In this document: positions 3,633 through 50,926 of the stretch, piece by piece
How positions within the stretch are numbered: the first letter of the stretch is position 1
Layout: the number at the start of each line of letters is the position of its first letter
Virus record (IMG/VR): IMGVR_UViG_3300022555_000013
Source of the DNA: an uncultured virus (IMG/VR IMGVR_UViG_3300022555_000013)
Lineage: Duplodnaviria > Heunggongvirae > Uroviricota > Caudoviricetes
Direction: 5' to 3' (one strand)
Length of the DNA stretch: 64,000 nt
Translations under genes and position numbers: made by a program
The notes under the pieces: model-generated
Seen by the model: the letters and a program-made list of their open reading frames with translations, nothing else
Databases searched by the model: none
Told to the model about the DNA's origin: nothing

Positions 3633-4020
3633 TTATAAATCGAATTGACGTGTTCTTGTAAATAAGTTAGATTCCTTGTCAGTTGCAAGTCTCATCACTC
3701 TGGATGGTGGTATCCAATCTTCATTTCTGGGTCCAGCGGGAAAGTTTGACCTTATCACATAATGATAGTTTAAAAAATTTATTATTTTACCAACCTTCTT
3801 ATCAGTTATCCATTCTTTATCATAGCAACTAAATATCCTTATAAACTACAATATCACCAGCCTTATATTTAAGATTGTCTGGTGGGGCAATAATCATAGA
3901 TTGGCTTAGATTTAATGCCCCCCATGGTAAATTAAGATTACTATTATTTGCACTCATAGCATGCAATGATCGTAATGGCTTGACTTTATATTTTTCTTCG
4001 AATAGCTTTAAATATTTCAT
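3633..4020 (-). pseudogene. frameshifted small protein with MKYLKLFEE leader and RQFDL C-terminus
   Basis: The track ORF stops at TAG 3829. The +1 frame from ~3845 continues IRIFSCYDKEWITDKKVGKII...RLATDKESNLFTRTRQFDL* to TAA 3633-3635. Confidence 0.7.
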
Positions 4021-4712
4021 TTGACTATTATTACAAATTGAAGTTGTTCTGACTCATCATTAACACTACATTCGACTTTAGGCCCCCACTTTTGCTTTTG
4101 ACTCCAGTCGTGAAGTGCCATAAATGGTCTATTGCTTTGGATATCTTGATCACTGTAAATACTTTTATCAAATGTTTTAATGACACGATTATCAACAATT
4201 TCTGTCTTTATTGGTTTGTGCTCAGGTATAAAATCTTTAATATCTTCTTTGATCTGCCTTAAAATATCGATGTTTCTTAAATTTATTGAATTAATCATTC
4301 CACCAATTGAACTAACAGCTTTATATTTAATAATTGATCTGAAATATCTTGGAGATGCAACAAATTCACCTGTGACATAACTCTTTTGCGAATTACTATC
4401 CAAAAATCCATATCTAAACGTTGATTTGTCCTTAACACCAAAAAAGAAAGCCAATTTATCATCTTTGCGATCCAGCAGTGTTTTATATGTACTTGCTAAT
4501 GAATGTTTATATTTGAAAACCTCAAGAAGCTCTCTAACATCAGATATTGTTTCGGTTGAGAAATAATACTGATATTTATAAAGTTTTGTGTAATGGTCAT
4601 TCAACATGAAATTATACCCATGATTACCTATTACCTGAAGAAGACTAAAAAATGAAAATTTTCCAGATAATTCATTAGAACTTTCATTTACAAATCCAAC
4701 GTATTTTTTCAT
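4017..4712 (-). CDS. hypothetical protein (MKKYVGFVNE leader)
   Basis: 231 aa, ATGA-coupled within the late operon. Confidence 0.75.
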   Translation of the reverse strand: MKKYVGFVNESSNELSGKFSFFSLLQVIGNHGYNFMLNDHYTKLYKYQYYFSTETISDVRELLEVFKYKHSLASTYKTLLDRKDDKLAFFFGVKDKSTFRYGFLDSNSQKSYVTGEFVASPRYFRSIIKYKAVSSIGGMINSINLRNIDILRQIKEDIKDFIPEHKPIKTEIVDNRVIKTFDKSIYSDQDIQSNRPFMALHDWSQKQKWGPKVECSVNDESEQLQFVIIVK

Positions 4713-5080
4713 TGAAATTTCTCATATGTTTTTAAGTATCTGAATACTTTTTCTTGCTGTAATTGATTAGGTACATCATTAATAGCGTCTTTATTAAACG
4801 CATTAGTTTTAACCCTTGTAGCATCAGTATCCAAAATTGATTTGGCTACAGTTTCTATATCATCACCTCTTTCACAAGCTTTTTTTATATCAGCAGCAAA
4901 ATCAGACATTCTTTGATCATCTTTTTCTGGAGAATCCCCCTGTGTAACCATTAAATCGTTAAACAATTGTGGGTCAATTCCTTTATATTTAGGGTCTTGC
5001 CCGATCAATTCTTTGATTTTATCCTGTACCATATCGAAATATTTTTTAACTTTTGTATCTACTGTTAATTCCATTACCAT
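4709..5080 (-). CDS. hypothetical protein with C-terminal RYLKTYEKF motif
   Basis: 123 aa in the late operon. Confidence 0.75.
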   Translation of the reverse strand: MVMELTVDTKVKKYFDMVQDKIKELIGQDPKYKGIDPQLFNDLMVTQGDSPEKDDQRMSDFAADIKKACERGDDIETVAKSILDTDATRVKTNAFNKDAINDVPNQLQQEKVFRYLKTYEKFQ

Positions 5081-5097
5081 TTTTTTATAATTATTTT

Positions 5098-5538
5098 TTA
5101 CATATCAAATCTATTTCCTATACTATTCGATTCATATTCCTTTTTAATTTTATCCATACTTTTAGTAAACTCATCAATATTAGCACTAAAATTTAATTCT
5201 CTAAAAAAATCTCCATGATCACCAGTATTTATTGTACCTATTGTAAATATACATATACCATTCAATCCTTTTTCAGACTGTGGGTTAAGATATATATTAA
5301 ACAACTTAATCCCATAATTATTCTCAAATTCAATTTTAAATCCTATGGTTTTATTTGGGGCTCTATAAAAATTACAAAAACCTCTTGCTGAATTAAATGG
5401 AAAATAGTTCATTTGAATTATTTTTAATTTTTTGATAAAATCTTCAATATATTCCATTGTCACATCATTGAATTTAATTTCACATACCAAGGATGTTCTT
5501 GTATTTTTCCAGCCTTCATTAAATCTTTCTATTTTCAT
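5098..5538 (-). CDS. hypothetical protein (MKIERFNE ... RFDM)
   Basis: 146 aa, both terminal motifs present. Confidence 0.75.
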   Translation of the reverse strand: MKIERFNEGWKNTRTSLVCEIKFNDVTMEYIEDFIKKLKIIQMNYFPFNSARGFCNFYRAPNKTIGFKIEFENNYGIKLFNIYLNPQSEKGLNGICIFTIGTINTGDHGDFFRELNFSANIDEFTKSMDKIKKEYESNSIGNRFDM

Positions 5539-6350
5539 AAATCAAATCTTTTCATTGCCATTTCTTTATTAAACAGTTCAATACTATCAGGTTTCATCAA
5601 ATCTGAAAATTCATTAAGAACTTTCAATAATTGATAGTGACTTAGCCCACAATTTTCCCGTTTCCTACTGAGGTCATTTATTTTGATATTTCTCCATTCA
5701 ATGTATCCCTTTGGTGTAAGCCCGTCACTTATTGAAAATGAAAATTGCGTATCATAATCATGCTCATACATATCAAAATTTATATTGTATGAAATTCGTT
5801 TTTCTGTACTTGGCTTACCAAGTATCATCTCTAATGTAATAGTATCTTCTTCACTAATACTAAATTCTTTATCTTTTTTATTTGATGTACAGAGAACTAA
5901 TTTTTCGATATCCATCCAATAATTATGGTCATAATCCCGTTTAAATTTTTCAATATTTCTAATCAAATTTCCAATTTTGTTGGTATATTCCCAACCTCTC
6001 AAAAAACTTTTTAATCTTGGATTCCGCTTAAATTGATCAGCTATTTTTTTTAATGAATATTCATAAATTAAATCTCGTATATCATTTATTGCATCTTTAT
6101 ATTTTATTCTAAGCTCTTCCTCATAATTTCCTTTTGTCTTCCGTTTATCATCCAATCTTTTAAGCCTTGTTCGTTCTTTTATTACGGCTGGATCAAAATC
6201 TTTATATTTATCTTTAGCATATTCTAACCCCTTATTTTTCATAAGTGATCTGAACCTATCTGTCATATCTGGATTTTCGGTCTTTACTTTATCCATAAAT
6301 TCAGTTTCTGATGAATTACCAACTATATGATATTCAAATATTGTATTCAT
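5535..6350 (-). CDS. hypothetical protein (MNTIFE ... RFDL)
   Basis: 271 aa, ATGA overlaps at both ends. Confidence 0.75.
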   Translation of the reverse strand: MNTIFEYHIVGNSSETEFMDKVKTENPDMTDRFRSLMKNKGLEYAKDKYKDFDPAVIKERTRLKRLDDKRKTKGNYEEELRIKYKDAINDIRDLIYEYSLKKIADQFKRNPRLKSFLRGWEYTNKIGNLIRNIEKFKRDYDHNYWMDIEKLVLCTSNKKDKEFSISEEDTITLEMILGKPSTEKRISYNINFDMYEHDYDTQFSFSISDGLTPKGYIEWRNIKINDLSRKRENCGLSHYQLLKVLNEFSDLMKPDSIELFNKEMAMKRFDL

Positions 6351-6694: not shown

Positions 6695-6703
6695 ATATTG
6701 TAT

Positions 6704-6712
6704 TATATATTA
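6704..6712 (-). promoter_or_regulatory. putative late promoter TAATATATA (representative copy)
   Basis: Exact 9-mer lies shortly upstream of start codons at 6704, 10382, 19810, 24228, 34474, 42755, 44983, 46895, 47896, 57542 (minus) and 20557, 34538, 37077, 42799, 49998, 50931, 51656 (plus). Confidence 0.7.
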
Positions 6713-6724
6713 AAAATAAAATCG

Positions 6725-6798: not shown

Positions 6799-8436
6799 AT
6801 GATTCAAATAAATGATAAAACTGTATATTTTCCAATTAAATACATACCCAAAAAATATCAATTAGATGCTCTTGAATTTACCAAAAAATCAATTTTAAAT
6901 GGTAAAAAGAACATTTTATTAAATTTGCCCACTGGAAGTGGAAAATCATTCTTTGCAGTCGCCATGCTTGCTAACTGGTATAAGAATTTTATCAATAACG
7001 ATGCTAAATTTGATATCATCACAAATTCTAAGGTCCTTCAAGATCAGTATTTAAAAGACTTTCCATTCATCCGAAATCTAAAAGGGATGTCAAATTACTT
7101 TTGTGATCCGTATGACACAGACTGCTCTAATGGCAAAGAAATATGTAGGGTATTAAAAAATCATGAATGTGGAGAATGCCCATACGATTCAGCCAAATTT
7201 AGGTGGATTCACAGTGAAATAGGGCTAACGAATTTTCACATGTTTGACACATTATCATTATTTCAAAAAAGCATCATCAACCAAAGAAATTCGAATGTCT
7301 TAATTGTTGATGAATCTCAGGAATTTGAATTGATATTTAGTTCTTATCTTGGCACAGCTTTAAGTGCCAGAACTTTAAAAAAATGCGGATTCAATCAAAG
7401 TGATATTGAAAAGATGGATGAAAAAATTAAAAAAATAAAGACTTTAGATAAATATGTTGACTATATCGAAAATCATTTAATTGATAGCTTAGAAACAAAA
7501 AAAGAAGAATTTGAATTAACACTTGATAAGATCGGGGATTTAAAAAAGAAAAAAGAAGTTGGGTCTTATATTCAAAGTCTTCAAAGCAAAATACGTTCAT
7601 ATAAGTCATTATTCGTTGCGTATAGAAACGATCCAGATAATATTGTTCTGGAAATCGATATAAACAAGAAAGAAAAACATTATTCTGGGGTTGAATTGAC
7701 ATCGCAGTTTGTATGGGCCTACAATCAAATACATGAGCAAGTTTGGAAAAACTATGATCATATAATTTTCATGTCAGGAACAATTTTAAATAAGGAGATG
7801 TTTTGTTATTTAAATGGACTTGATGAAGAAGTTACAACATATTATGAAATAAATAGCCCATTTTCTTTGAAGAATAGACCGATTTATTATATAAAAGTTG
7901 GTAAAATGAGTTATAATAGCAAAGAAGAGACATTCAAAAAACAAGTAGATTTTGTTGAAAAGATACTTAAGAAATACCAAAGTAAAGGGATTATTCATAC
8001 TGTTAATTATGAATTGACAAAATTCATACAAGATAATATTTTAAATGAAAGATTTATTTTTCATGAAACTGAAAATAGAGATCAGATGCTTGAGAAGCAT
8101 TTAAAAAGCCCAGAAAATACTGTTCTCGTTAGTCCATCTATGATGAGTGGTATAGACTTGAAAGATCATCTGGCAAGATTTCAGATTTTAATGAAAATCC
8201 CATTTCCAAGCCTTGCTTCGAAGAAAATAGTTGCCAGAAAGAAATCAAACCCAGATTTTTATGTATATAAAACTGTGTGTGATTTAATACAAGCTATTGG
8301 CAGGGGCGTTAGATCAGAAACCGATTACTGTGATACATTTATATTAGATGCTAATTTATCCGATCTGCTAAGATATAACTCACGAATGATACCAAAATAT
8401 ATTCGTGACGCTATCAAAGAATTAAAAATTACCTAA
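6799..8436 (+). CDS. DinG/XPD-like SF2 DNA helicase
   Basis: Q motif KYQ, Walker A LPTGSGKS, Cys cluster (Fe-S), motif II variant VDESQ, MSGT, SGIDL, KIPFP, QAIGRGVRS. Confidence 0.9.
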   Translation: MIQINDKTVYFPIKYIPKKYQLDALEFTKKSILNGKKNILLNLPTGSGKSFFAVAMLANWYKNFINNDAKFDIITNSKVLQDQYLKDFPFIRNLKGMSNYFCDPYDTDCSNGKEICRVLKNHECGECPYDSAKFRWIHSEIGLTNFHMFDTLSLFQKSIINQRNSNVLIVDESQEFELIFSSYLGTALSARTLKKCGFNQSDIEKMDEKIKKIKTLDKYVDYIENHLIDSLETKKEEFELTLDKIGDLKKKKEVGSYIQSLQSKIRSYKSLFVAYRNDPDNIVLEIDINKKEKHYSGVELTSQFVWAYNQIHEQVWKNYDHIIFMSGTILNKEMFCYLNGLDEEVTTYYEINSPFSLKNRPIYYIKVGKMSYNSKEETFKKQVDFVEKILKKYQSKGIIHTVNYELTKFIQDNILNERFIFHETENRDQMLEKHLKSPENTVLVSPSMMSGIDLKDHLARFQILMKIPFPSLASKKIVARKKSNPDFYVYKTVCDLIQAIGRGVRSETDYCDTFILDANLSDLLRYNSRMIPKYIRDAIKELKIT

Positions 8437-9263: not shown

Positions 9264-9274
9264 ATTCAATCGAT

Positions 9275-10451: not shown

Positions 10452-13400
10452 ATGGTACCAAGCAAAACAATAGAAGAAAGATTTAAAAAATTAACCCCCA
10501 AAGAACATATCCTGAAAAAACCAGGTATGTATATTGGAAACATTTACACTGAACCAACTAAATTGTTTGTTTTTGAAGATATTAATGACCTTAAAAGTAA
10601 CAAATTTGCTTATAAAGTAGTTGATTATAATGCTGGATTTTGCAAATTATACGATGAAGTTCTGACCAATGCATCTGACCATTATATTCGTACAGGTAAA
10701 GTAAAATATATTAAAATAGATGTTGAACGGGATCATATTGTTATTGAAAACGATGGACCAGGAATTCCAATCGAAATGCATAAAGAACACAATATATACG
10801 TTCCAGAATTGATTTTCGGAAATTTGCTTTCTGGTGAGAATTTTGACGAAAATGAGAAAAGAATGGTCGGTGGAACCCATGGATTGGGTGTAAAGCTCTC
10901 TAATATTTTTTCTACCAAATTCATTATTGAAACTGCGGATGGAAAAAACAAATACAAGCAGACGTTCATAAACAATATGGATAAGAAGACCAAACCAGAA
11001 ATTTCCAAATCCAATAGAAATTATACGAGAATTACATTTTATCCAGATTTTAAGAAATTTGATATGGTTGAAATATCAGACGATGTTCAATCAATATTAC
11101 TCAAACGAGCAATTGATATTGCAGCCTACAACCCAGACGTTAAAGTCTATTATAATAAAACACTCATTCCAATCAAAACGTTTAAAGATTATGTTAAAAT
11201 GTTTTTAACTGATGATGAAGAATTGTTTTACGAAAGATTGAATGATAACTGGGAAGTTTGTGTCGCCAAATCCCAAAATGATATGTTCCAACAAGTATCA
11301 ATGGTAAATGGGGTATCTACAATAGTTGGTGGAACTCACGTGAATTTCATTTCAAATCAAATTGTTAGACTACTTGGCGAAAAAATAGAAAAAACAAACA
11401 AAGGCGTTAATGTTAAACAAAACATGATCAAAAGTCATTTGTTTTTATTTTTAAACTGCCGCATAACAAACCCAGAATTTGAAACTCAAAGTAAAGAAAA
11501 TCTAACTTCCAAGCTTGGAAACGATATTATAAACAACCTTGAGTTATCTGAAGCCTTCATAAAAAAATTAGCAACATCAGAAATAAAAAACGATATTGTA
11601 AACTTTGCTACAATAAAGGAGTTTCAGGAAGCCAAAAAACAGACTTCCCAGAACGGTCAGAAGGCTAAGGTCAAAATAAACAAGCTGGATGACGCTAATA
11701 AGGCTGGTAAATCACCAGATAGTATGAGGTGCCAACTTTTCTTAACAGAAGGTGATTCAGCGGCATCGACCGCTAAAAGAGGTCGATCCATTATTGGGAA
11801 TGACTACTTTGGAATATTCCCATTAAAGGGTAAGCCAATGAATGTTCGAAACATATCACTTCAGAAAATGAGGGATGATGTTGAAATTGATAGTATCATC
11901 AAAGCCCTTGGACTTGAATTTGGTAAAAAATATAACACAACCAGAACTTTAAGATATGGTAAAGTTGTAATTATGAGTGATATGGATACTGATGGTAGCC
12001 ATATAAAGGGGTTAATTGTGAACTTATTTGACACATACTGGCCCGAACTTCTGGAACTTGATTTTGTATATGAATTCATTACCCCATTAATAAAAATTAA
12101 GAAGGGGTTTGGTGCCAGTGCCCGTATAAAGTATTTCTATCGAATGAAAGATTACAAAAAATGGAAAGATGATAATAAAGAAGGTGGCTGGTTCATAAAA
12201 TATTATAAAGGTTTAGGTACAATCGAACCGCATGAAGCTAAGCTATTCTTTAAGGATTTAGCAAAACATCTCATCCGTTTTAATCCATCAGCAAAATTTG
12301 CCGATGATAGAAATATGGTCGATTTAGCTTTTAATAGTAAACGTATTGAAGACCGTAAAAAATGGCTACTTGGATATAAACCTACTCAAGAACTGGACAA
12401 ATTTACAACCAAACAAACATATGAATCATTTTTCAATAATGAATTTATTGAGTTTAGTATGGCTGACAATGTTCGGTCTATCCCGAATGTAATGGACGGA
12501 CTCAAGCCATCACAAAGAAAGGTTCTTTACACCCAATTCAAAAGAAACTTCAAAGATGAAGTTAAAGTTGAGTTATTTATGGGTAGTGTGCTTGAAATAG
12601 CGGCATATCACCACGGGCCTGCTTCATTAGAGCAAACCATTATTGGGATGGCTCAAGATTTTGTTGGATCAAACAATATCAATTTATTAGACCCAGTTGG
12701 TGAATATGGTACCAGATCAAAGGGTGGTAAAGATGCATCTGCCAGCCGATATATTTTTACCAAATTAAACAGTGTCACAAGGGACATATTTAAAAGTGAC
12801 GATGATAGTATTTTAGAATATATGGTTGATGACGGATATATTGTTGAACCAAAATATTATGTTCCGATTATTCCAATGGTATTAATAAATGGCTCTGATG
12901 GTATTGGCACTGGTTGGTCAAGTTATGTTCCGCCATGCAACCCAAATGATGTCATTACTTATATTGAAAATAAGCTTAAAAACAAGAAGAATATCAAACT
13001 ACTGCCTTGGTTCAAAAATTTCAAAGGTGAAACTATATATGATAATGAAAAGCAAAGATATGTTACTAAAGGCATTATTGAAAAATTGGACAGGACGAAG
13101 GTTAAAATAACGGAATTGCCAATTTATACATGGAACGATAGTTATTATTTATTCTTGGATAAATTAATAAAGGATGGTGTTATTCGTGATTACGATAAAT
13201 ATTGCAATGACAGTGACGTTAATATCGTGGTGAGCATGGCTGAAGAAAATCTATCCATGATGGATCATAACACGCTTATAAAGCAGTTTAACTTGGAAAG
13301 CTATCTGAGCATGTCTAATATGAATTTGTTCGACACAAGCGGTAAAATACACCTCTACAGCGATCATTATGAGATTATAGATAGCTTCATTAAAATCAGA

Positions 13401-13757
13401 CTGGAAACCTATGATGCCAGAAAAAAATATTTACTTGATAAACTTGAGGAAAATAAGAAATTTCTGATCAATAAAATGAAATTTATAAACTTAGTACTGA
13501 AGAAAGAAGTCACCTTTGAAAATAAATCCAAGGATAACATCATCAAGCAAATTGAATCCCATGGAATTGAACAGCATAAGGGCGATTTTGAATATCTTTT
13601 GAACATTTCTCTTATTTCATTATCCAAAGAACGGCTGGAAGAACTAAAAGCATCATACAACAAAGTTAAGTTGGAGATCGAAAAGATTACATCCACCACA
13701 ATAACAGATATGTGGCTTACCGATCTTAATGAGCTGAAAAAAAGGTTAGAAAAATGA
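10452..13757 (+). CDS. type IIA DNA topoisomerase, single polypeptide (ATPase+TOPRIM+breakage-reunion)
   Basis: GHKL EVLTNASD and GGTHGLGVK; TOPRIM TEGDSA, PLKGK, DMDTDGSHIKGL; YYKGLGT; DGLKPSQRK; YHHG; catalytic SRY. Confidence 0.96.
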   Translation: MVPSKTIEERFKKLTPKEHILKKPGMYIGNIYTEPTKLFVFEDINDLKSNKFAYKVVDYNAGFCKLYDEVLTNASDHYIRTGKVKYIKIDVERDHIVIENDGPGIPIEMHKEHNIYVPELIFGNLLSGENFDENEKRMVGGTHGLGVKLSNIFSTKFIIETADGKNKYKQTFINNMDKKTKPEISKSNRNYTRITFYPDFKKFDMVEISDDVQSILLKRAIDIAAYNPDVKVYYNKTLIPIKTFKDYVKMFLTDDEELFYERLNDNWEVCVAKSQNDMFQQVSMVNGVSTIVGGTHVNFISNQIVRLLGEKIEKTNKGVNVKQNMIKSHLFLFLNCRITNPEFETQSKENLTSKLGNDIINNLELSEAFIKKLATSEIKNDIVNFATIKEFQEAKKQTSQNGQKAKVKINKLDDANKAGKSPDSMRCQLFLTEGDSAASTAKRGRSIIGNDYFGIFPLKGKPMNVRNISLQKMRDDVEIDSIIKALGLEFGKKYNTTRTLRYGKVVIMSDMDTDGSHIKGLIVNLFDTYWPELLELDFVYEFITPLIKIKKGFGASARIKYFYRMKDYKKWKDDNKEGGWFIKYYKGLGTIEPHEAKLFFKDLAKHLIRFNPSAKFADDRNMVDLAFNSKRIEDRKKWLLGYKPTQELDKFTTKQTYESFFNNEFIEFSMADNVRSIPNVMDGLKPSQRKVLYTQFKRNFKDEVKVELFMGSVLEIAAYHHGPASLEQTIIGMAQDFVGSNNINLLDPVGEYGTRSKGGKDASASRYIFTKLNSVTRDIFKSDDDSILEYMVDDGYIVEPKYYVPIIPMVLINGSDGIGTGWSSYVPPCNPNDVITYIENKLKNKKNIKLLPWFKNFKGETIYDNEKQRYVTKGIIEKLDRTKVKITELPIYTWNDSYYLFLDKLIKDGVIRDYDKYCNDSDVNIVVSMAEENLSMMDHNTLIKQFNLESYLSMSNMNLFDTSGKIHLYSDHYEIIDSFIKIRLETYDARKKYLLDKLEENKKFLINKMKFINLVLKKEVTFENKSKDNIIKQIESHGIEQHKGDFEYLLNISLISLSKERLEELKASYNKVKLEIEKITSTTITDMWLTDLNELKKRLEK

Positions 13758-16087: not shown

Positions 16088-16471
16088 ATGGAAGATACAA
16101 ATGTTGTTATAAAAATTAATAAGCAATTGATAATAATGGTTTTTTATATAAATGTTCGTGGGTTAACAAGACAACGGGCTGAAGAACAAGTATATGAGTT
16201 AATGAAAAACCAGCATAGTCAGTTTGAAACACCAGAAATAATGGAGAATTACATAATTAGAACAATTTTCTTACCTGTCGAAGATAAAGAAAGTGATGTT
16301 AAGATAATCTATCCAGTATCAGGACAGAGTGAAAACGATGAAGTATTAGAATTTATAAAGGAATTAGAAGAAAAATTTTGTGATTCAATTGATAAAAATG
16401 CTAAAGAGATGGCTTCCTATTGGAAAAAAACTTATCGTGAAATGAAATTAAAAAAACTTAACGGTGCTTAA
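16088..16471 (+). CDS. hypothetical protein ending REMKLKKL
   Basis: 127 aa. Confidence 0.7.
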   Translation: MEDTNVVIKINKQLIIMVFYINVRGLTRQRAEEQVYELMKNQHSQFETPEIMENYIIRTIFLPVEDKESDVKIIYPVSGQSENDEVLEFIKELEEKFCDSIDKNAKEMASYWKKTYREMKLKKLNGA

Positions 16472-17204: not shown

Positions 17205-18194
17205 ATGAATAACTTAGATATACAACATAAACAATTAATTGAAAAAATCTTAAAAGATGGTGAAAACAAGCTGGATCGGACTGGTGTTGGAACAAGATCA
17301 ATTTTCGGGCACCAGATGCGATTTAAAATGACAGATGGATTTCCCCTGCTTACATTAAGAAAGATTCACACAAAGAGCCTAATACACGAAATTTTGTGGT
17401 TCTTATCAGCATATGATGATAAATATAAGAAGTTCCGCAACACAAATATTCGATACTTGGTTGATAATGGAGTGACATTTTGGACAGACTGGCCCTTAGC
17501 TAATTATAATAAATATAATTCACCATTGAGTCAAAAGGAATTTGAAAAAAGAATCATGGAAGATGATGATTTTGCGTTGCAATGGGGGGATTTAGGACCA
17601 GTTTACGGTAAGCAATGGCTTAATTTCAGTGGAGTAAATCAAATTGACGAAGTAATTAATCTTCTAAAAAACGATCCAGATAGCCGTAGAATTATTCTTA
17701 ATGCTTGGAACCCACCAGAAATTCCGCATATGATGCTTCCACCATGCCATATGTTTTTTCAATTATATTCATTTGATATGGGAGAAGATGAACGGTTCTA
17801 TTTCTTCACTAAAGATAGAGTAACTTATAAAAAGGCTCACAAAAGCATAAGTTCATGCTTTCCAAAAAGAAGGCTTGATATGCAATTATACATCAGAAGC
17901 CAAGATGTTTATTTAGGTCAACCATTTAATATTGCAGAATACGCATTATTACTTCATATGCTTGCACAAGTTACAAATATGGTGGCTGGGAATCTGATAT
18001 ATACAATCGGTGATGCTCACCTTTACACGAACTCAATTGATGCTGCCAAAACAATTTGTACTCGAACTGGATATGATCTATCCAAATTGGTTTTAAATAA
18101 GAAGATAAAAAATATTTACGATTTTAGGTTTGACGATATTCAAATAGAAGATTACAAAAGCCACAACAACATATATGTTAAAGTTGCGGTTTAG
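17205..18194 (+). CDS. thyA: thymidylate synthase
   Basis: DRTGVGT, FPLLT, EILWF, LGPVYGKQW, PDSRR, LPPCH, RSQD, PFNIA, GDAHLY, ends VAV. Confidence 0.97.
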   Translation: MNNLDIQHKQLIEKILKDGENKLDRTGVGTRSIFGHQMRFKMTDGFPLLTLRKIHTKSLIHEILWFLSAYDDKYKKFRNTNIRYLVDNGVTFWTDWPLANYNKYNSPLSQKEFEKRIMEDDDFALQWGDLGPVYGKQWLNFSGVNQIDEVINLLKNDPDSRRIILNAWNPPEIPHMMLPPCHMFFQLYSFDMGEDERFYFFTKDRVTYKKAHKSISSCFPKRRLDMQLYIRSQDVYLGQPFNIAEYALLLHMLAQVTNMVAGNLIYTIGDAHLYTNSIDAAKTICTRTGYDLSKLVLNKKIKNIYDFRFDDIQIEDYKSHNNIYVKVAV

Positions 18195-19804
18195 GCTGAT
18201 CTGGCAAGCTGACGTTTGATATCAGTCGAAATGTTTATATCCAACGTATTCAAATCAAGAATAATTTGCTTCAGTAGGCTTGCAGCAAGAATAATATCAG
18301 TGGTTGATGCAATATTATATCCATCAATCAAGCTTTTTATAGCTTTATATGAATCTTTCCTCATATTCAATACACCAGTGCTATTTATTTTTCTATCAAT
18401 TTTTTCAACTGATTTGGATATATTAATTTTATTATCCCTTACATAAATATCACTTTTTTCAGCAGTACTTAATAATGAGTCTGCACTATTGAAAGCACCA
18501 TTTATAACTGCAAGTCTGGTAATATAATTGGTATAGTTTGAATCGGCATTATCATACTCATTGTTTCTCAGTTTTTCGAATGCGGTATTAATATCATTGG
18601 TTAATCTAATTTTTTCGGCATTATAATCGATTTTAACCAACGAATTATCTTTCTTACCAATATTCATTTTAGTAAGCAAATTTCGCTTATTATTATAATT
18701 TTCATTTAACTTATCAAGTTCTGATATCTTAATACCAAAATTCTTATATTCACTTACAATTGAATTTATTTTGTATGTTTTATTCAAAAATGTTTTAAAT
18801 TTCTTATCAAAAATGGTTCGTGTCCCAATGAGATACTTTAGTCGTCTTTCTGTATATTCTTTACTGGTAAATTCAATTGTGTTGGTATCTGGAATTATGC
18901 CTTCTAAGTCGTTCATCAAATAATCACCGCAAAAATCATATTTATTTTTAAGAAAACTTTTAGCATTATTTATTGAAAAATGTACCCCACGAATTTCAGA
19001 TTTTGTAGTATTTATCAATTTCTTAACGTCAAGCATTCTATTATATAAATACTGAAGATGTGATTTATACTCTGGTAAATACGGTGATATCGATCTTAAA
19101 ACAAATAATTTATCATATCGATCCTGAATATTGCTTGTAAGTTCTACAGAATCATTAAATAGATCACTTTTTAATTGCTCAATGTTTGTTATAAGTATTT
19201 CTATCTCGATCCTTAAATCTTCAGCTTCTCTGCGTCTTTTTATTTCATGCTTTACAAAAAAATAAAATCCGATCAAAATAAATGCTACTATAAAAGAAAT
19301 TAAAATTCTACGCAGCCACATATTAATTATGGCTGAATCATATTTTTCTTTTATTTTTTTATATGCGATCATCATTTGATAATTGCCATGCCCAATCTTA
19401 TCTTGTATGGTAGTTAAAAATGTTACTGTACCATTAAACAAAACAGAATCATTAAAACTATTATTACCAATTTGCTTACATTCATCTTCTGTTATTAAAG
19501 AATTCAGACCAGAACCTGTAATGCATTGCCATTTTTTATCACCAGAAACAACCAGAAGAATACCAGTATTATGTGGATATCCAATATTCAAATTCCTAAA
19601 AGTATTCACATTTGAATTATTATCAATCTTCGAAACTACTAACACAAAAGTTTCAATGTGCGTATGTATCCAATAATTTAGCAATGACTGATTCAGCGTA
19701 TTTCTTTGATGATTGGTAAGCAATGAATCACAATCAATAACATAAGTTTGACTAAATAATACGGAAAATATAAATAAAAAAAATAATGTAAATAGTTTCC
19801 TCAT
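18191..19804 (-). CDS. signal-peptide/TPM-domain membrane protein with coiled-coil tail
   Basis: N-terminal signal; TPM-like NTGILLVVS...ITGSGLNSLITE; one TM helix; long helical tail. Confidence 0.65.
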   Translation of the reverse strand: MRKLFTLFFLFIFSVLFSQTYVIDCDSLLTNHQRNTLNQSLLNYWIHTHIETFVLVVSKIDNNSNVNTFRNLNIGYPHNTGILLVVSGDKKWQCITGSGLNSLITEDECKQIGNNSFNDSVLFNGTVTFLTTIQDKIGHGNYQMMIAYKKIKEKYDSAIINMWLRRILISFIVAFILIGFYFFVKHEIKRRREAEDLRIEIEILITNIEQLKSDLFNDSVELTSNIQDRYDKLFVLRSISPYLPEYKSHLQYLYNRMLDVKKLINTTKSEIRGVHFSINNAKSFLKNKYDFCGDYLMNDLEGIIPDTNTIEFTSKEYTERRLKYLIGTRTIFDKKFKTFLNKTYKINSIVSEYKNFGIKISELDKLNENYNNKRNLLTKMNIGKKDNSLVKIDYNAEKIRLTNDINTAFEKLRNNEYDNADSNYTNYITRLAVINGAFNSADSLLSTAEKSDIYVRDNKINISKSVEKIDRKINSTGVLNMRKDSYKAIKSLIDGYNIASTTDIILAASLLKQIILDLNTLDINISTDIKRQLARSA

Positions 19805-25672: not shown

Positions 25673-26362
25673 GTCCTTTTTTGATTGTTTATATAATTCC
25701 TTTGGAATTTTAACATCAGAATTAAGAACCCATTTACACTTCACATATTTAAGATACTCCAGAAGCTCATCATAATTGATATCCTGATAGTATGGTGGCT
25801 GGACATACATGAAATCATAACGACCACCTATAACGTCAGTAAATTTATCATTATTAAAAATAACATTTTTTTCGGATAATATCTCATACCAACCAAATAT
25901 TAAATCTTTCAAAATATTGGGTGGGCTTCCTTTTTTATTTGGTTGGTATTTTGCAATAAAATTACCGCTATCATCATATTCAAATATTCCACTGCTTGTC
26001 CTATTTAAAAATAATAATTCTGAAGGATCACGATATTTATTATAATCATTTAGCATATCAATCCAATATTCTTTCCGCTCCACAGAATTATCAATACTGT
26101 TCAGATTATCACGTAAGTTGATATAATCATAATATAGTCTATATGGATGATCTCTAAGCTCATTCCAAAAACTAATAATGTCTTCATTTGAATCAGAAAT
26201 AATATAATATTTAATATCGAGTCCAGAATTTATCATTGCAAATAGAACATCACAGCTATTTGCAAATGGCTCAACATATCTGCTTATTTTATTTGGCGCA
26301 TTTTTTATAATATTTTTATATTGAACGAAGCTATCAAACCAAAGTAGAATATCATTCACCAC
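25655..26362 (-). CDS. degenerate Dam-family DNA adenine methyltransferase-like protein
   Basis: YVEPFANS (G-loop altered), ISDSN, LFLNRTS, DFMYVQPPY (DPPY to QPPY). Confidence 0.75.
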   Translation of the reverse strand: MVNDILLWFDSFVQYKNIIKNAPNKISRYVEPFANSCDVLFAMINSGLDIKYYIISDSNEDIISFWNELRDHPYRLYYDYINLRDNLNSIDNSVERKEYWIDMLNDYNKYRDPSELLFLNRTSSGIFEYDDSGNFIAKYQPNKKGSPPNILKDLIFGWYEILSEKNVIFNNDKFTDVIGGRYDFMYVQPPYYQDINYDELLEYLKYVKCKWVLNSDVKIPKELYKQSKKDLYFNF

Positions 26363-26711
26363 TTTCTAATTTTTTTAATTTATCTTTTCTGACGTATATA
26401 TTATAATTGGTGATTTTTATTAAAGGCGGTTGATAAAATTCAATTTTAGATGTCCACCCATCTACTGGTTTCATTTCATGTAATCTGGATGTGTCAAAAA
26501 AATAATGACTATTTTCAACTTTTAATATTAGAAAATAGTCATAATTTTTCAATTTTTTTAAATCATCAAATATACTCAGCAACGAACATTCTACAACTTT
26601 TAATTTAGATATTGTCTCTCGAATATCGTCATTAAAAGGCAAGTTCACAGATTGTTCTGACCAAATCTGTGAACTTAAACCTTTTAAAATACGCCTTTCT
26701 TTATTAGTCAT
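26352..26711 (-). CDS. hypothetical protein ending RKDKLKKL
   Basis: 119 aa. Confidence 0.65.
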   Translation of the reverse strand: MTNKERRILKGLSSQIWSEQSVNLPFNDDIRETISKLKVVECSLLSIFDDLKKLKNYDYFLILKVENSHYFFDTSRLHEMKPVDGWTSKIEFYQPPLIKITNYNIYVRKDKLKKLESGE

Positions 26712-34109: not shown

Positions 34110-34454
34110 TTATCTTATATTTAATTTTTGTATCCTTAACCCGTTATAGGAATACTTTTTTCCATAAAGAACAAAATAATCATCTTCAAATGATAATGGG
34201 CTATATTTACTCTTATCAATGCTTGAATCATAAATAACCTCACCATTTAACGTTAAAGAAAACTTTTTCAATTCCTTAATGTATGATTCGTATAATTCTT
34301 TATTGGACTTAATTATTGGCTTAGAGTCAGGTACTATATCATGTACTATATGAACTAATTCTTCTTCATTACCCTCAACAAAGTCTTCATTAAAGTCTTC
34401 ATTTTTCTTTACTTTCTTCTTTTGGGTATCAGTTTCTTTTTTTAATTCTGACAT
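34110..34454 (-). CDS. hypothetical protein
   Basis: 114 aa after TAATATATA at 34474. Confidence 0.7.
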   Translation of the reverse strand: MSELKKETDTQKKKVKKNEDFNEDFVEGNEEELVHIVHDIVPDSKPIIKSNKELYESYIKELKKFSLTLNGEVIYDSSIDKSKYSPLSFEDDYFVLYGKKYSYNGLRIQKLNIR

Positions 34455-45467: not shown

Positions 45468-46867
45468 TTCTTACCTTTAGTTTTCGGAATTTTAATATCC
45501 GTGGCTGGCATATTATCTAATCCGCCACCTTTCTTATTAGCTGATGAAGATGTATTGAAGTAATTGTTTGTGTCAGTTACAATTCTGACTGTATCATCAA
45601 CTACAGCATTTGCACCCAATTTGCACATTCTTAACACAGAAACTCCAGTAATATTTCCATCAATAAAGCATTGATATAAATAAGAATCGTGTATTTCAGA
45701 ATTTTGATCTATCTTAGTAGCTTGAATTTTTGAACCAATTATGTTTGAATCGATTATTTCACCACCGTGAATAGCACCATTTACAACCTCAGAAGATATG
45801 AAATTACAATCTGTATATCTACCGTTATTAGCTTTACACTCTATAAGATCAATATTTGAGATATCAAATATAACTTTAAGTGTGGCATCGACAAGCTCCA
45901 ACCTATTAGTTAATGTATCAAGATTTATGATACAATCCTTTAAATTATATACATTATGGATCAAATCATAAATTTGTTCATAAACTGTTTCATAATATGC
46001 TTTTAGAACGCCAAATTCATTCACTTTATCAACCTGAATATCGATAGTTGGGAATTGTGCAATAAAATCTTCCAAATTGGTGAACGATTTGAAATTGTTT
46101 ATATTTTCAAATAAATATTCTTTAAGTTTTTCTAAATCATCTTCATCTAACGGGGCTGAAATACAATCCCAGCTTGTTGAAATAAAGTAATCCATAAGCG
46201 TTAATATTTCTGATGTTTTAGTATGATAATCCTTCCCGCCAATATATCTCCACTCCAGCCTACCTTTTTCAATTGTTTTAATATTGATTCCATAATATTT
46301 TGTATCTGGCAATTCCAAATTATTAATCAAAATTCCAATGGCACTTGTATAGTAATCAAACCCCTTAAATGGAATAATAGTCTTTACGCTTTTGGCATAA
46401 ATATTATTTTTTCTTTCTGGAAAATAGTCATAAATGTATTCTTCATCGACTTCCAATATGACTTTCAATTGATTTAATTTATCAATCGTCTTTGTTGTTT
46501 TTTCTTTATCGAATGAAATATTAACGTGTAATGAGCATTTTTCATCTGTTCTGCCATGGACTTGTAAAAACTTAAGTATTTTAAGTAGAATAATCTTAGA
46601 GTTAACATACGGCATCGGCCCCGTAATAAGTTCTACCATATCATACCCACCAGATAAGTCTGGTTCAATTTTGAAATTGCTTTCATCAGGTTTAAATGCC
46701 GAGTGATATTTTCTATATCCAGATACAGTAATAGGAGCCAATTCATTATTCAAAAGTTCGAGCAATTTATAGTATGATTTATCTGTATAAAATTCAAACT
46801 CGAACCCAACAATGGCATTCTTTAGTTTCTCAAAATCATTAATGTACTTGGTTGAAAATACCTTCAT
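45461..46867 (-). CDS. putative amidoligase (COOH-NH2 ligase type) with C-terminal beta-helix
   Basis: GFEFEF, IEPDLS, ELITG, CSLHVNIS, KYYGIN, RLEWR; repetitive I/S/N-rich tail. Confidence 0.75.
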   Translation of the reverse strand: MKVFSTKYINDFEKLKNAIVGFEFEFYTDKSYYKLLELLNNELAPITVSGYRKYHSAFKPDESNFKIEPDLSGGYDMVELITGPMPYVNSKIILLKILKFLQVHGRTDEKCSLHVNISFDKEKTTKTIDKLNQLKVILEVDEEYIYDYFPERKNNIYAKSVKTIIPFKGFDYYTSAIGILINNLELPDTKYYGINIKTIEKGRLEWRYIGGKDYHTKTSEILTLMDYFISTSWDCISAPLDEDDLEKLKEYLFENINNFKSFTNLEDFIAQFPTIDIQVDKVNEFGVLKAYYETVYEQIYDLIHNVYNLKDCIINLDTLTNRLELVDATLKVIFDISNIDLIECKANNGRYTDCNFISSEVVNGAIHGGEIIDSNIIGSKIQATKIDQNSEIHDSYLYQCFIDGNITGVSVLRMCKLGANAVVDDTVRIVTDTNNYFNTSSSANKKGGGLDNMPATDIKIPKTKGKKW

Positions 46868-46918
46868 AGGTAAATATATTTTTTTATAACACTATATATA
46901 TTAAATTTGAAAGTAGAA

Positions 46919-47392
46919 TTATAAATCGAAACGTTTAGTGGTTTTAAGTTGAGCACATTTTTCACAGCCGCACACCCCTGCAATATCATTCATTAATCTA
47001 TCACATCTAAATCCGTCCTTTGCATACTGAATAGCAGTATCATATGTTAAATGACTTGTATTAACATCTGTTGGGATTGAATAATCATCGAGAATAAAAA
47101 AAACCTCAGAGCGGTCAATTTCTCCCCTTTGCCAAAATTCAGCAGTAAACCAGTTTAATGTCTGATCACTGTCAATATCATAATCTGTCATTCCAGTTTC
47201 TAATATTTCATCATTTGGGGTGTTTCCTCGTTTATCAATATAAATTGTATGATATCCATCTGTAACTTGTGCTACAATATCGCCATCCTTATACCAGTAG
47301 GCTTCTTGCCTATCTTCTGATAATTTGGGGGTGTTTATTTTAACCTCAATCTTACTTGATAATACTGCTTCCCATGTTTTTAAATGCTTCAT
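46919..47392 (-). CDS. hypothetical protein (MKHLKTWE ... KRFDL), paralog of 47389-47877
   Basis: Shares PK..E.RQ...WY, .DG.HT, YD.AI..AK..F and CxxC with its neighbour. Confidence 0.8.
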   Translation of the reverse strand: MKHLKTWEAVLSSKIEVKINTPKLSEDRQEAYWYKDGDIVAQVTDGYHTIYIDKRGNTPNDEILETGMTDYDIDSDQTLNWFTAEFWQRGEIDRSEVFFILDDYSIPTDVNTSHLTYDTAIQYAKDGFRCDRLMNDIAGVCGCEKCAQLKTTKRFDL

Positions 47393-47877
47393 AAGTCAAA
47401 TCTTTGTTCTGTCCTAATTTTTTTACACTTTCTACAATCACCCTGATTCATAATATAATCTTCGTCAAAAGATTCCTTTGCGGTTTCAATGGCATCGTCA
47501 TACATTACTGGGACAATACTGACTTCTACGTCTTCATTTGACTCCTCATGATAATATTCAACTAAAAACCAATTATTACGATTAAATCTATCATTACGCC
47601 CAAGTTCGTCAAGATCATTATCAGTCAATTTTAATTCCATCGCTTTCTTAACAGCATCTTCGTTGCCATAACTTTCTCCATCTTCAGTAAAACTAACATC
47701 AATTTCACCTTGGGCACGTATCACAAATGTATGAAAACCATCACTTACAGTTGCAATAGTTTTATCATAATACCAGAATGAACTTTGCCTATTTTCTGCT
47801 ATTTTTGGATATTCGATTTCAACTTTAAACTGTACTGGAATTTCAAATGATTCTTTCCAAAATTTAAGATACTTCAT
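47389..47877 (-). CDS. hypothetical protein (MKYLKFWKE ... QRFDL)
   Basis: 162 aa after TAATATATA at 47896. Confidence 0.8.
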   Translation of the reverse strand: MKYLKFWKESFEIPVQFKVEIEYPKIAENRQSSFWYYDKTIATVSDGFHTFVIRAQGEIDVSFTEDGESYGNEDAVKKAMELKLTDNDLDELGRNDRFNRNNWFLVEYYHEESNEDVEVSIVPVMYDDAIETAKESFDEDYIMNQGDCRKCKKIRTEQRFDL

Positions 47878-47907
47878 AATTGGATATATTTTAGGTATAT
47901 ATTATTT

Positions 47908-48900
47908 TCAAAACCTAAAAATACCTTCAAGTGCGGTTAAGCGTTTATTAATCTTTGGAAGACCAATCGGTTCAAGGAAACGATTTATAATGTTGAGAAA
48001 GCAAACATCGAACTGAGTATCATAATCGATTTTAAGCCCTTCTTTTTCGGTAATTTCTAATGGGTGGAACCCCCTCATATAAGCCAGAATGTTATTCTTT
48101 GGGTGAGTACAATAATAATATTTTACTTTACCACCTTTGATAGTATCATACTTTATTTTATATTCTGAATTCTTATTCAGTAAATAGTTGTGTAATGCAG
48201 CAGCTTTCACTGCAAAGTGGGCACCTTTGACTGTAACAACATCTGTGACATCATCAAGAACTTTTGTATTATAATTACTACAGGATACAGACATTGATAT
48301 GTCTTCTATATCAGCCAGCATAAACCGCTTCTTTAACTCCCTAACTTGTTTAAGAACATTTCGAATAAATGTCGGATCATTATTGGCGGCTTCTTCGGGA
48401 TGAGAAAATAAATATCGTAAAAAGTCATAGATGTTCTCCCTGACAAATAATGGAGTTGATGTTTTAACAATCTCCACCCCCTTAGGATAAAAATATGATA
48501 AATTTTCGTAGAAAATTCCATCTTCCCATGCAACATTATTGATGTAGTGTTTTTTCTGAATGTGAAGAGCCGATCTGTTAATAGTTTCAAGCTCAAAGTC
48601 GTGAATATTCTTTACTCCAAATTTTGCAGCATACTCTTCCAAATATTTAGTAAAAATTCGTTTTACTACAACACGGTCCAAATGCAAAATAAAATCTAAT
48701 TCATCACCAGAATAATTACACGATTCGATCACTGGTGCAAATGAGACATAAAGAGAATTATGCACTAAAATATCATTACCAATAAACGTATGATTATTAT
48801 CATCTACTTCTATATCGTAAACATACTCATCTTCAAATTCACCGATTTGTTCACAAGTTTCAACATCGTCAAAAATATATTCAATATCATTCATATTCAT
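47908..48900 (-). CDS. split-intein C-fragment fused to family B DNA polymerase C-terminal part
   Basis: MNMNDIE...VYDIEV...HTFIGNDILVHN|SLYV (blocks F/G, His-Asn, +1 Ser at 48754-48756); then KKHY, KGVE...TSTP. Confidence 0.92.
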   Translation of the reverse strand: MNMNDIEYIFDDVETCEQIGEFEDEYVYDIEVDDNNHTFIGNDILVHNSLYVSFAPVIESCNYSGDELDFILHLDRVVVKRIFTKYLEEYAAKFGVKNIHDFELETINRSALHIQKKHYINNVAWEDGIFYENLSYFYPKGVEIVKTSTPLFVRENIYDFLRYLFSHPEEAANNDPTFIRNVLKQVRELKKRFMLADIEDISMSVSCSNYNTKVLDDVTDVVTVKGAHFAVKAAALHNYLLNKNSEYKIKYDTIKGGKVKYYYCTHPKNNILAYMRGFHPLEITEKEGLKIDYDTQFDVCFLNIINRFLEPIGLPKINKRLTALEGIFRF

Positions 48901-49039
48901 AAGATTTAATTTTTTCAAGTAATTCATCAACTATGTTATCAATACCCCTATCTTTCAAGTCTTTTTCCCAAACTATAATTATATCTCTAACTTTTGTTCT
49001 TAAAAAATTTAATCGCTCAGCGTCATATTAAAATATCAT
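48887..49039 (-). pseudogene. remnant of a Vsr/DUF559-like homing endonuclease
   Basis: Reads MIF*YDAERLNFLRTKVRDIIIVWEKDLKDRGIDNIVDELLEKIKSYEYE*; overlaps both intein-half genes. Confidence 0.65.
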
Positions 49040-49926
49040 TTATCTTTAATTATAAGAATTTTATCTGTTATTAAAATTTCAGACGGCTTAATTTCTAATT
49101 TTTTTCCATCTCTAAACACAATCATGGAGTGATCGTTAGTAACTATTATTTCCTTCCCAGATTTTGTTTTTAATTTCCATTTGGGTTTAGAAACCTTATG
49201 CCTTATAATTCTTTTCACTGTAGCATAATAAATACCTTTATTTTCGTCCCAATTCAAAATTTTTTCTTTACAATTTACCGATTCATGTCCATTTAATGTA
49301 ATACCAGCGGAACCTTCATGGGTATTTTTATTATATAAATCCTCAATTGTATAATCTCCATCATTCGTGCAAATATTTGATTTACAAAAAATTGAGTCGG
49401 TGTCACCATAAATAATGATTGGTTTATCCTTTGGGATTTGCTGGACATTGCTGAAGTCAGCAACATCCCGCCTAAATTGTATATTATATTCACCTATTGT
49501 TTTATTCTCAGCCGTAAGATCACTTCTAAATATATTTAATTTAGTCAGCATCGCATCGAGCGATTTATGTGGGTAATGAATGTTTGATCCCTCACGATCC
49601 AATAAATAGAATTTACCGTCTTTTTCTGCAATATATTCAACCCCCAGTTTTTGATGTGAAGCGATATCTAAATGCCATTCTTTATAAAAATATGTTTCAA
49701 TTTTCTTAAGCATATAATTGATAACATCCCGACCCATAGCGGTTATAGCATTAGCTATGTGAGAATTTGATAATACAAACTTTGGATGTGCAAAGGCACC
49801 ATAGGTTCCATTAATAACCAATTTTAATGCAAGCTGCATAGCCTTAGCTCTATCATACTCCGCCTGTACTTCGTCTATCTTCTTTTTTAATATAGCTATT
49901 TGTTCTCTTTTCTCTTCACTTATCAT
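49036..49926 (-). CDS. family B DNA polymerase central part fused to split-intein N-fragment
   Basis: Motif B QLALKLVINGTYG, ITAMGR, motif C YGDTD|S; 119-aa IntN from Ser 49393-49395 with block B VTNDH; AAAC-N18-TATAAT at 49950-49977. Confidence 0.93.
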   Translation of the reverse strand: MISEEKREQIAILKKKIDEVQAEYDRAKAMQLALKLVINGTYGAFAHPKFVLSNSHIANAITAMGRDVINYMLKKIETYFYKEWHLDIASHQKLGVEYIAEKDGKFYLLDREGSNIHYPHKSLDAMLTKLNIFRSDLTAENKTIGEYNIQFRRDVADFSNVQQIPKDKPIIIYGDTDSIFCKSNICTNDGDYTIEDLYNKNTHEGSAGITLNGHESVNCKEKILNWDENKGIYYATVKRIIRHKVSKPKWKLKTKSGKEIIVTNDHSMIVFRDGKKLEIKPSEILITDKILIIKDK

Positions 49927-50013
49927 TAATATCCTCTTTCTTTTTCTTAATTATATCACTTTAACACCAAATTGTTTCTTTTTTTGCTCGTAAAAAATAA
50001 TATATACATCAAT

Positions 50014-50400
50014 ATGGATGAAAATATTCTAAAACAGGCAAAGGGTGATATTTATAAGGCGGTATACGATGTTATCGAATTTGATATTAAAAAAGGAATA
50101 TCAGCCGAAGCATTAAATCGTTATTATAAAAAACCAAAAAATATCTTAACTCTTATAGGTCGAATTCATAATAAAGGTTCAAATTTATTTAGTAATGAAG
50201 ATGAATATAATGAAACTGTGATGAAGGCTATAAATGAAATAGTTAGGGATAGAATAAACAGCATTAAAGATAAGAAGGAACGAAATAAACACATAAAAGA
50301 ATGGGTCGAATTTAACGAAGATTATTACGGCTCATTCGATAGACCATCAATTGACGACAGTAAAAAAAAAAATTTGATTTATGATAACACACTGGGATAA
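50014..50400 (+). CDS. hypothetical late protein (start MDENILK); -1 frame at the A11 run gives KFDL*
   Basis: TAATATATA at 49998; internal KHIKEWVEFNE; A11 at 50362-50372. Confidence 0.7.
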   Translation: MDENILKQAKGDIYKAVYDVIEFDIKKGISAEALNRYYKKPKNILTLIGRIHNKGSNLFSNEDEYNETVMKAINEIVRDRINSIKDKKERNKHIKEWVEFNEDYYGSFDRPSIDDSKKKNLIYDNTLG

Positions 50401-50926
50401 ATTCAATGAAAAAATTGATTTATTAAAATTATTTCCTGATGTAGAACGGATTGTGTATAAAAAATCGTCCAGACACACCGATTTCGTACTCAACCCAACA
50501 GCACAAAGATTAAAAAAGATTGAAGAAAGAATTGAAAGACTTTTATCAACCGAAGAAATAAATATATTCATAGGTAAATTGCAAAATTCGTTAATGTGGT
50601 TTCATAAAAATGATATCGTAAGTTTTGTTGCGAACGTTCAAGGCAAACTCAGGGATGCTATGACAAATAAAGTTTTTGAAATTTTTAAGGAAGTCGAAAT
50701 TAAAGGTAGGAAATTTGAAATTGGTGATATAGTTTACATTGAAGATAGGTTTCCATCTAATTCTGGTGATTCTTTCACACTAACACTTTTAAACAAACGT
50801 ACACGATCTGGGAAAAGAATTGATAGTTATTGTGATTGTGATGTACTTGAAGATAATATTAAAAGGTCTGATGAAGCTAAAAAATTATCAGATATTAAAA
50901 TTCGGACTGATAGATTTGATATTTAA
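50381..50926 (+). CDS. hypothetical protein (MITHWDKFNE ... RFDI)
   Basis: 181 aa. Confidence 0.75.
   Translation: MITHWDKFNEKIDLLKLFPDVERIVYKKSSRHTDFVLNPTAQRLKKIEERIERLLSTEEINIFIGKLQNSLMWFHKNDIVSFVANVQGKLRDAMTNKVFEIFKEVEIKGRKFEIGDIVYIEDRFPSNSGDSFTLTLLNKRTRSGKRIDSYCDCDVLEDNIKRSDEAKKLSDIKIRTDRFDI

Follow-up and report, generated by a model that had tools for sequence, protein, structure and literature searches.

A lineage-specific C-terminal tetrapeptide on unrelated small proteins of huge freshwater phages: a candidate address label

The uncultured-virus record IMGVR_UViG_3300022555_000013 (IMG/VR) provides a 64,000-nucleotide stretch of phage DNA, referred to here as the window, in which otherwise unrelated small proteins end exactly at the stop codon in the tetrapeptide [RKQ]-F-D-[LMI]. 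Eight intact open reading frames (ORFs) carry this tag. All eight endings are as listed in a first-pass annotation of the DNA, and its two additions from frameshifted genes, RQFDL (3633) and KKFDL (50384), are borne out by frame analysis (Table 1; genes are called by their first coordinate). Related phages carry related endings. In its general form the tail is short and lysine-rich, ..K/T-x-x-[KR]-[FY]-[DGN]-[LIVM]-COOH, and it is probably an address label read by one partner. Its carriers are fast-changing small accessory proteins in one clade of huge phages from fresh water, allied to the 'Mahaphage'/Lak group.

Chance is excluded as the source of the shared ending. The window gene set was a greedy ORF call (at least 40 amino acids (aa), n = 84; no trained gene finder), and 8 of its 84 ORFs end in [RKQ]FD[LMI]. 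In 20,000 composition-preserving shuffles the mean was 0.0087 and the maximum two tagged ORFs; none reached eight. Enrichment at C-termini over shuffled proteomes had been set beforehand as a test of the idea, and it is seen here. Inside proteins the motif occurs three times in 20,266 residues, and among 206 ORFs in other frames the strict motif is found in the 3633 fragment only. At the level of DNA, the R-F-D-L-TAA/TGA pattern is present five times in the window against 0.17 expected, each time at a real gene end; five huge-phage genomes (3.19 Mb) yield a single match to R-F-D-L-stop, which is chance level.

The bodies that precede the tag, 96-271 aa long in the window, are mutually dissimilar apart from one paralogue pair, as had been claimed: all-against-all BLASTP relates only 46919 and 47389 (E 5e-20), the next best pair being 5098 and 6347 (E 0.19). 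None of the eight tagged proteins has a match in Pfam or PHROGs, including their neighbours in those searches shed no light on them, and the ESM Atlas gave no usable match for the 5535 protein. A Foldseek search of the PDB with both AlphaFold2 (AF2) models described below returned nothing at E <= 0.001 (best, a PII-like fold at E 0.06). The 47389 protein has two weak partial matches only among viral contigs, and five complete genomes of huge phages contain no homologue of the 9275, 50381 or 5535 protein.

The tag is an appended module, because distant homologues of the 9275 protein stop earlier and because close orthologues keep FDL while the linker changes. For the 9275 protein, an exhaustive search without profiles turned up five distant homologues (P0005-P0009, 105-148 aa), all of which end 1-4 residues past a conserved ..EFxxWYN helix. 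The 9275 protein runs on for 14 extra residues that carry the tag, adding DVFLPIKNTEKRFDL, and the last six residues of its AF2 model have a predicted local distance difference test score (pLDDT) below 50. The orthologue of 47389 (P0002, 70% identity) ends ..KKFKQFDL and that of 46919 (P0011, 78% identity) ends ..KRTRQFDL; both retain FDL, and the preceding 8-15 residues have diverged. The LR756501 homologue of 47389 (39% identity), its sole homologue in the big reference phages, is untagged. Homologues without the motif had been named as grounds for giving up the idea. Such homologues exist only at a distance, the close orthologues (70-78%) keep the motif, and distant untagged homologues fit the gain of a modular tag and do not refute it.

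Nor does the tag belong to this phage alone: it is one variant of a clade-wide family, [KR]-[FY]-[DGN]-[LIVM], followed at times by one or two residues. Relatives were found through the neighbouring helicase, searched for in metagenome and viral contigs, which brought up one identical contig (L079, metagenome, 100%) and 24 relatives at 43-66% identity. Several of these, with helicases 46-62% identical, have arrays of small genes with related tetrapeptide ends, placed, as they are in the window, mostly upstream of the helicase on the other strand: KKYN[ILV] on nine ORFs of L080, L083 and L102, [KEN]KFGL on eight ORFs of L094, and [KEND]FN[LI] on five ORFs of L095 and L096. The 308-kb viral contig behind L101, taken whole (G001), has 26 tagged ORFs among 448 (KYNIL 12, KYNII 6, KYNVI 3, KYNISL 3, KKYNI 2), each version being expected fewer than 0.003 times. 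A hydrophobic-x-hydrophobic pattern occurs at the free carboxyl end in four lineages; in G001 the motif is extended by one or two residues.

A single version prevails in each genome: D in 10 of 10 tags of the window, G in 8 of 8 of L094 and N in 26 of 26 of G001, and the versions track lineages in the helicase tree. BLAST sorts the 36 tagged proteins into 24 groups. The window 5535 protein (..AMKRFDL) and the product of L094:4949-5716 (..DANKFGL) align end to end with 88 of 254 residues identical, and L094 3519 (..KKFGL) and L096 3885 (..NDFNL) are likewise orthologues; in both pairs the difference falls exactly on the tag. Genes at the same array position in the window and in G001 are non-homologous; the arrays therefore swap contents yet keep their ends. 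The tag evidently changes in concert across whole genomes, and concerted change over unrelated proteins argues for one shared, co-evolving reader. That such a reader exists is what this pattern best supports, and we consider it probable.

Selection, we conclude, acts on the peptide and not on a DNA repeat, as the first-pass annotation had also supposed, because tag codons match genome-wide usage and nothing is conserved after the stops. The window tags use TTT 7 and TTC 3 times, GAT 9 times and GAC once (genome-wide shares 0.76/0.24 and 0.83/0.17); R is encoded by AGA, AGG and CGT; TTA is favoured, with five copies forced by ATGA overlap. The corresponding counts in G001 are TAT 24 and TAC 2, AAT 23 and AAC 3, ATT 16 and ATA 16 (genome-wide shares 0.91/0.09, 0.89/0.11 and 0.51/0.42). 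There is no DNA conservation past the stop of tagged genes, and the distance from tag stop to next start ranges from -4 to over +150. Overlap of stop and start is not the sole cause of the conserved ending either: five of the ten window tags have a TAA stop and no overlapping start. A DNA repeat was rejected, since the tag codons vary synonymously, and a promoter or ribosome-binding reading (TATAAT from K-Y-N, TTTG from F-D) fails on synonymous variants.

The tagged proteins of relatives often share their other end as well, starting MITxFKIFE[NS] or MK[YH]LKTFE. A MITxFKIFE-like start is found on 11 of 24 tagged and 8 of 308 untagged ORFs of the relatives (Fisher 1e-9); in G001 the N-terminal motif is on 16 of 26 tagged and 10 of 422 untagged ORFs (2e-16). 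I-F-E follows the motif in many relatives. Window starts look related but shifted (MKYLKFWKE, MKHLKTWEA, MITHWDKFNE, MKIERFNEGW), and tryptophan falls within the first 12 residues of four of the eight window tagged proteins, against none of 48 in other lineages. A G001 member was modelled with AF2 (mean pLDDT 74): pLDDT stays below 50 over residues 1-12, and the tail forms a confident helix (97-112), after which the next four residues are assigned no secondary structure.

The favoured reading can be put as a sequence of steps. The tail would have been appended to small accessory proteins with its four final residues exposed; one partner would recognise it and co-evolve with it; and each lineage would fix one version of its own across its whole tagged set at once (FD here; FG, FN, YN and YN+L in relatives). 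Label and shared N-terminal peptide would then load these proteins into the assembling head, or hold them there, and the loaded proteins would pass into the next host together with the DNA, in the way that T4 internal proteins and Alt do by means of a capsid-targeting sequence (CTS). Head loading is a tentative choice of destination, favoured over a signal for an AAA+ protease, and presence in the virion is suggested by analogy. Slightly more doubtful is the full form of the proposal, a two-ended private address in which a CTS-like N-terminal peptide and a C-terminal [KR]-[FY]-x-[LI] would mark dozens of unrelated, rapidly exchanged effectors, ADP-ribosyltransferases included, for loading and co-injection, with label and reader drifting together and each lineage reading its own cargo only. 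One tagged G001 protein (47249-48112) is an ART-PolyVal ADP-ribosyltransferase (PF18760, E 2.5e-20). The claim that no recognisable enzyme is tagged thus holds within the window and fails in this relative. Three further tagged G001 proteins each match a different PHROG, all of unknown function. Injection together with the DNA is predicted for the ART domains of polyvalent proteins, according to an excerpt of PMC5512222.

Several observations weigh against the favoured reading. Neither in the window nor among 142 scanned G001 proteins could a capsid, scaffold or portal gene be recognised, and no partner protein that would read the tag was found. Tagged genes sit among replication and nucleotide-metabolism genes in the window and among replication genes in G001, and some appear to be co-transcribed with replication genes (47389 and 46919 come right after PolB, the family-B DNA polymerase); such a neighbourhood suits early proteins better than head proteins. 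At 6-12% of genes the cargo set would be very large. A free carboxylate at a fixed place is evidently not needed, since G001 has KYNIL and KYNISL. Concerted change is directly seen in two cross-lineage orthologue pairs only, and lineage-specific duplications may partly explain the uniform tags and so inflate it. As for the other end, the two N-terminal patterns match one and none, respectively, of the nine window ORFs in the tagged row. In LR756502, 79 of 930 ORFs start MK[HY]LK.[YF][NK]E without a common C-terminus. The N-terminal motif is therefore a wider, older feature, and it may mean something else. (These LR756502 ORFs lie at loci L009-L041, for example 10332-32285 and 419029-425895.)

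The principal competitor keeps the single reader and changes its business: the tail would be a degradation or tethering signal for a phage or host AAA+ protease, timing the removal of early accessory proteins or delivering them to the machine. Such an end would be served by an exposed peptide at the C-terminus of accessory proteins that look short-lived, and the placement of tagged genes in replication regions agrees with it. What keeps this reading alive is a soluble FtsH-like protein (AAA plus Peptidase_M41, HELGH, 632 aa) encoded by G001, which has 26 tagged ORFs; five more distant huge phages, none of them with the tag, have no member of its family (PF01434). The gene lies at 17326-19224 (L107), and its product has a GxxGxGKT ATPase motif, the HELGH of Peptidase_M41 and no obvious membrane anchor. 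The FtsH-like gene is, however, absent from the window and from the other loci examined, so that the co-occurrence comes from a single genome; known C-terminal signals for FtsH and ClpX are non-polar, unlike this basic, polar tail; and the shared N-terminal peptide would be left unexplained. A protease signal is accordingly judged unlikely, if still the main rival to head loading.

A reader could also be dispensed with altogether if the tag were a structural cap (helix, then G/N/D, then a hydrophobic residue) on a common C-terminal helix, its uniformity stemming from the recent expansion of a few founders. The variable position is restricted to D, G and N, the commonest residues at helix C-caps; the tag directly follows a confident helix in the AF2 model; and the genes stand in tandem arrays, with some detectable paralogues among them. 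But caps would be expected to drift independently, yet the window, L094 and G001 are each uniform for D, G or N, and orthologues older than the split bear whichever version their own genome has. The domain to which the 9275 tail was added folds in five homologues that lack the tail, and the tagged bodies differ in size and in PHROG family. We find this account improbable.

Still less credit is due to docking on a replication or transcription hub (sliding clamp, single-stranded DNA-binding protein (SSB), polymerase or RNA polymerase) after the manner of T4/RB69 gp43, gp33 and gp55. Tagged genes do flank the helicase, topoisomerase II and split PolB genes, hydrophobic residues alternate in the C-terminal tail, and G001 has a gp32-like SSB. 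Yet the C-terminal part of PolB (47908-48930) ends ..ALEGIFRF and no recognisable replication enzyme is tagged; about one gene in eight far exceeds the needs of a replisome; one tagged member is an ADP-ribosyltransferase; and the beta-clamp family PF00712 was not found in five related genomes, a gp45-type clamp not having been searched for. PDZ_2 (PF13180) is absent from five relatives, and neither a clamp nor a PDZ reading found support. Finally, the proposal that gene ends double as translation-coupling or recombination junctions in packed arrays is most improbable and, for the RFDL tag, largely refuted: TGA with ATGA overlap is indeed enriched on tagged genes (5 of 10 in the window; 15 of 26 in G001, against 88 of 448 overall), and a different tag (..LGI) of LR756502 is biased to GGA/GGG and ATA codons, but the other half of the window tags have TAA without overlap, spacing to the next gene varies, synonymous tag codons follow genome-wide usage, TTC variants disrupt any TTTG motif, and amino-acid classes stay constant while bases differ, as the three codons for R attest.

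Table 1. Tagged genes, fragments of tagged genes and other features of the window
Feature	Coordinates	Strand	Ending	Start and remarks
Tagged ORF, 146 aa	5098-5538	(-)	GNRFDM-TAA	MKIERFNEGW
Tagged ORF, 271 aa	5535-6350	(-)	MKRFDL-TGA	ATGA overlap with next gene
Tagged ORF, 115 aa	6347-6694	(-)	IGRFDL-TGA	MITLFELY
Tagged ORF, 173 aa	9275-9796	(+)	EKRFDL-TGA	tag codons 9782-9796
Tagged ORF, 96 aa	38723-39013	(-)	SIKFDL-TAA	
Tagged ORF, 157 aa	46919-47392	(-)	TKRFDL-TAA	MKHLKTWEA; paralogue of 47389
Tagged ORF, 162 aa	47389-47877	(-)	EQRFDL-TGA	MKYLKFWKE; directly downstream of split PolB
Tagged ORF, 181 aa	50381-50926	(+)	TDRFDI-TAA (50912-50926)	MITHWDKFNE
C-terminal piece of frameshifted gene	3633-3758	(-)	TRTRQFDL-TAA	frame open ~70 codons to tag
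N-terminal piece of the 3633 gene, 63 aa	3829-4020	(-)		MKYLKLFEE
ORF with 11-A run at 50362-50372	49972-50400	(+)	-1 frame KKKKFDL-TGA (50373-50384)	
Possible weak tag variant, 387 aa	58958-60121	(+)	SLKLDM	matches phrog_2475 (unknown function); outside the count of eight
Second-class ending	16088-16471	(+)	..EMKLKKLNGA	
Second-class ending	26352-26711	(-)	..DKLKKLESGE	
Second-class ending	34110-34454	(-)	..GLRIQKLNIR	
Helicase	6799-8436			
Topoisomerase II	10452-13757			
Family-B DNA polymerase (PolB), split	47908-49926			

The two pieces of the 3633 gene lie in different frames, and a single shift would join them. In 49972-50400, twelve A in place of eleven, or a -1 slip, would give ..KKKKFDL-TGA, with the TGA overlapping the ATG at 50381. 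The same 11 A, without an indel, are present in contigs of runs X2 and X3, which come from different studies, and the 11-A run is therefore not a one-off assembly error. A variant strain in run X7 has ~430 extra letters exactly at this run, and there the region of paralogues 46919 and 47389 is swapped for a shorter, unlike stretch. An untagged conserved gene ending ..QF[VI]I[IL]VK terminates the tagged array in each lineage. In relatives it is a single ORF of ~364 aa (G001 45811-46905; L080:7181-8272); in the window it appears as ORFs of 231 and 123 aa (4017-4712(-) and 4709-5080(-)) with an ATGA overlap.

The window (~30% G+C) is part of a huge phage of the LR756501/LR756502/LR745206/Lak group, because its 1078-aa protein (328-3564) matches proteins of all of these: identity is 41%, 38% and 37% to the proteins of LR756501, LR756502 and LR745206, uncultured phages of 735, 642 and 635 kb, and ~27% to Lak phage proteins. 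A PDB sequence search with the 1078-aa protein gave no match. Metagenomes from fresh water and lakes, from several studies, contain DNA near-identical to the window; an exact 42-base match to the window was not found among viral contigs. An alternative genetic code was ruled out, table 11 fitting the window. Besides helicase and topoisomerase II, the products include thymidylate synthase, an SbcC-like protein, IF3, an S1-domain protein and transposases; the related transposase ORFs (phrog_506) at 52707-53903(-) and 57031-57510(-) comprise one full-length and one truncated copy. PolB is divided between two ORFs, 47908-48930(-) and 49036-49926(-), an intein N-part ending the first and an intein C-part opening the second (PF14890 matches), an arrangement that looks like a split, trans-splicing intein.

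Other C-terminal endings recur in these phages. A second class, R[ND]xKLKK[LI][NG].., is on many small proteins of the window, L082, L085, L103, L091 and LR756502, and closes 16 tandem genes of 79-109 aa at L082:66-4235. In LR756502, 44 of 930 ORFs end [LIM]-G-[ILV], mostly as R[DN]xKLxx[LI]G[IL]; all 44 are BLAST singletons, and there is some nucleotide-level bias. In LR756501 (L042-L078), 38 ORFs of otherwise unrelated sequence close with DPYGEE[DEN]W, and in 55 ORFs the motif is internal or lies close to the start (for example at 145582-146127 and 499642-503452). One carrier, 11314-11850, has a weak match to the T4 prohead protease family. G-x-E is a protease site, and the G-E-E of DPYGEE would fit it. 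Peptidase_S77 gave weak matches only, in LR756501 and LR756502. A literature search for DPYGEE returned no relevant match, and no paper with both 'RFDL' and 'C-terminal' was found; a search on huge phages and C-terminal motifs returned a ribosome paper only, such tags being undescribed there.

Huge phages have hundreds of small genes of unknown function, and a label on 6-12% of genes would sort these into one functional class; because the label is shared, it is also a handle for fishing out the reader. Should it prove to be a head-loading label, it would define the arsenal injected by phages so far beyond the reach of culture and would provide a short tag for packaging foreign proteins; should it prove to be a degron, it would be the first phage-private code for protein turnover. 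The D, G and N versions constitute a natural experiment: the reader should bear matching changes, which complete genomes of the clade would allow to be found.

T4 and RB69 gp43, gp33 and gp55 have C-terminal tails that bind the sliding clamp. Like these, the tag is a C-terminal hydrophobic peptide on unrelated phage proteins (read, in T4 and RB69, by one ring), encoded near replication genes; unlike them, it spares the polymerase, has many more carriers and occurs in a group in which no clamp (PF00712) was found in five genomes. AAA+ degrons and adaptor tails (the ssrA tag, the end of MuA, the XB tail of SspB) resemble it in that a terminal peptide gives unrelated proteins access to one machine, but the signals known for such machines are either non-polar or part of the host's own system, and our literature search found no description of a phage-private, lineage-specific degron on dozens of proteins. 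Encapsulin cargo-loading peptides, short C-terminal peptides on unrelated cargo that dock inside an HK97-fold shell, have their consensus around G-S-L. The tag is like them a C-terminal peptide on unrelated proteins, and it differs from them in consensus and in that neither the window nor the scanned part of G001 showed a recognisable shell protein.

The closest precedent is the T4 CTS, which was overlooked when the first-pass annotation stated that no characterised phage tag is like this one. The T4 internal proteins are a diverse anti-restriction set with only the CTS in common, in the excerpted text of PMC3012670. Excerpts of PMC9026906 and PMC5694885 describe the CTS as 10 residues long, with residues 4 and 7 mattering for targeting and 8 and 10 for cleavage, and the Alt ADP-ribosyltransferase as packaged, with propeptides processed at both ends. 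The T4 signal is N-terminal and is cleaved by the prohead protease at (L/I)-x-E, whereas the tag reported here is a C-terminal tetrapeptide (and thus no T4-type N-terminal propeptide of 10-19 residues); the tagged set is also much larger. In both systems a short terminal peptide is the sole common element of diverse, fast-changing accessory or anti-defence proteins (IPI-III and Alt in T4; here, eight window proteins with one paralogue pair among them and, over the clade, the 24 BLAST groups), and in both one cargo is an ADP-ribosyltransferase. The MITxFKIFE and MKYLKTFE starts of the relatives also resemble the T4 sequence MKTYQEFIAE in length, in the spacing of aromatic residues and in a possible I-x-E site.

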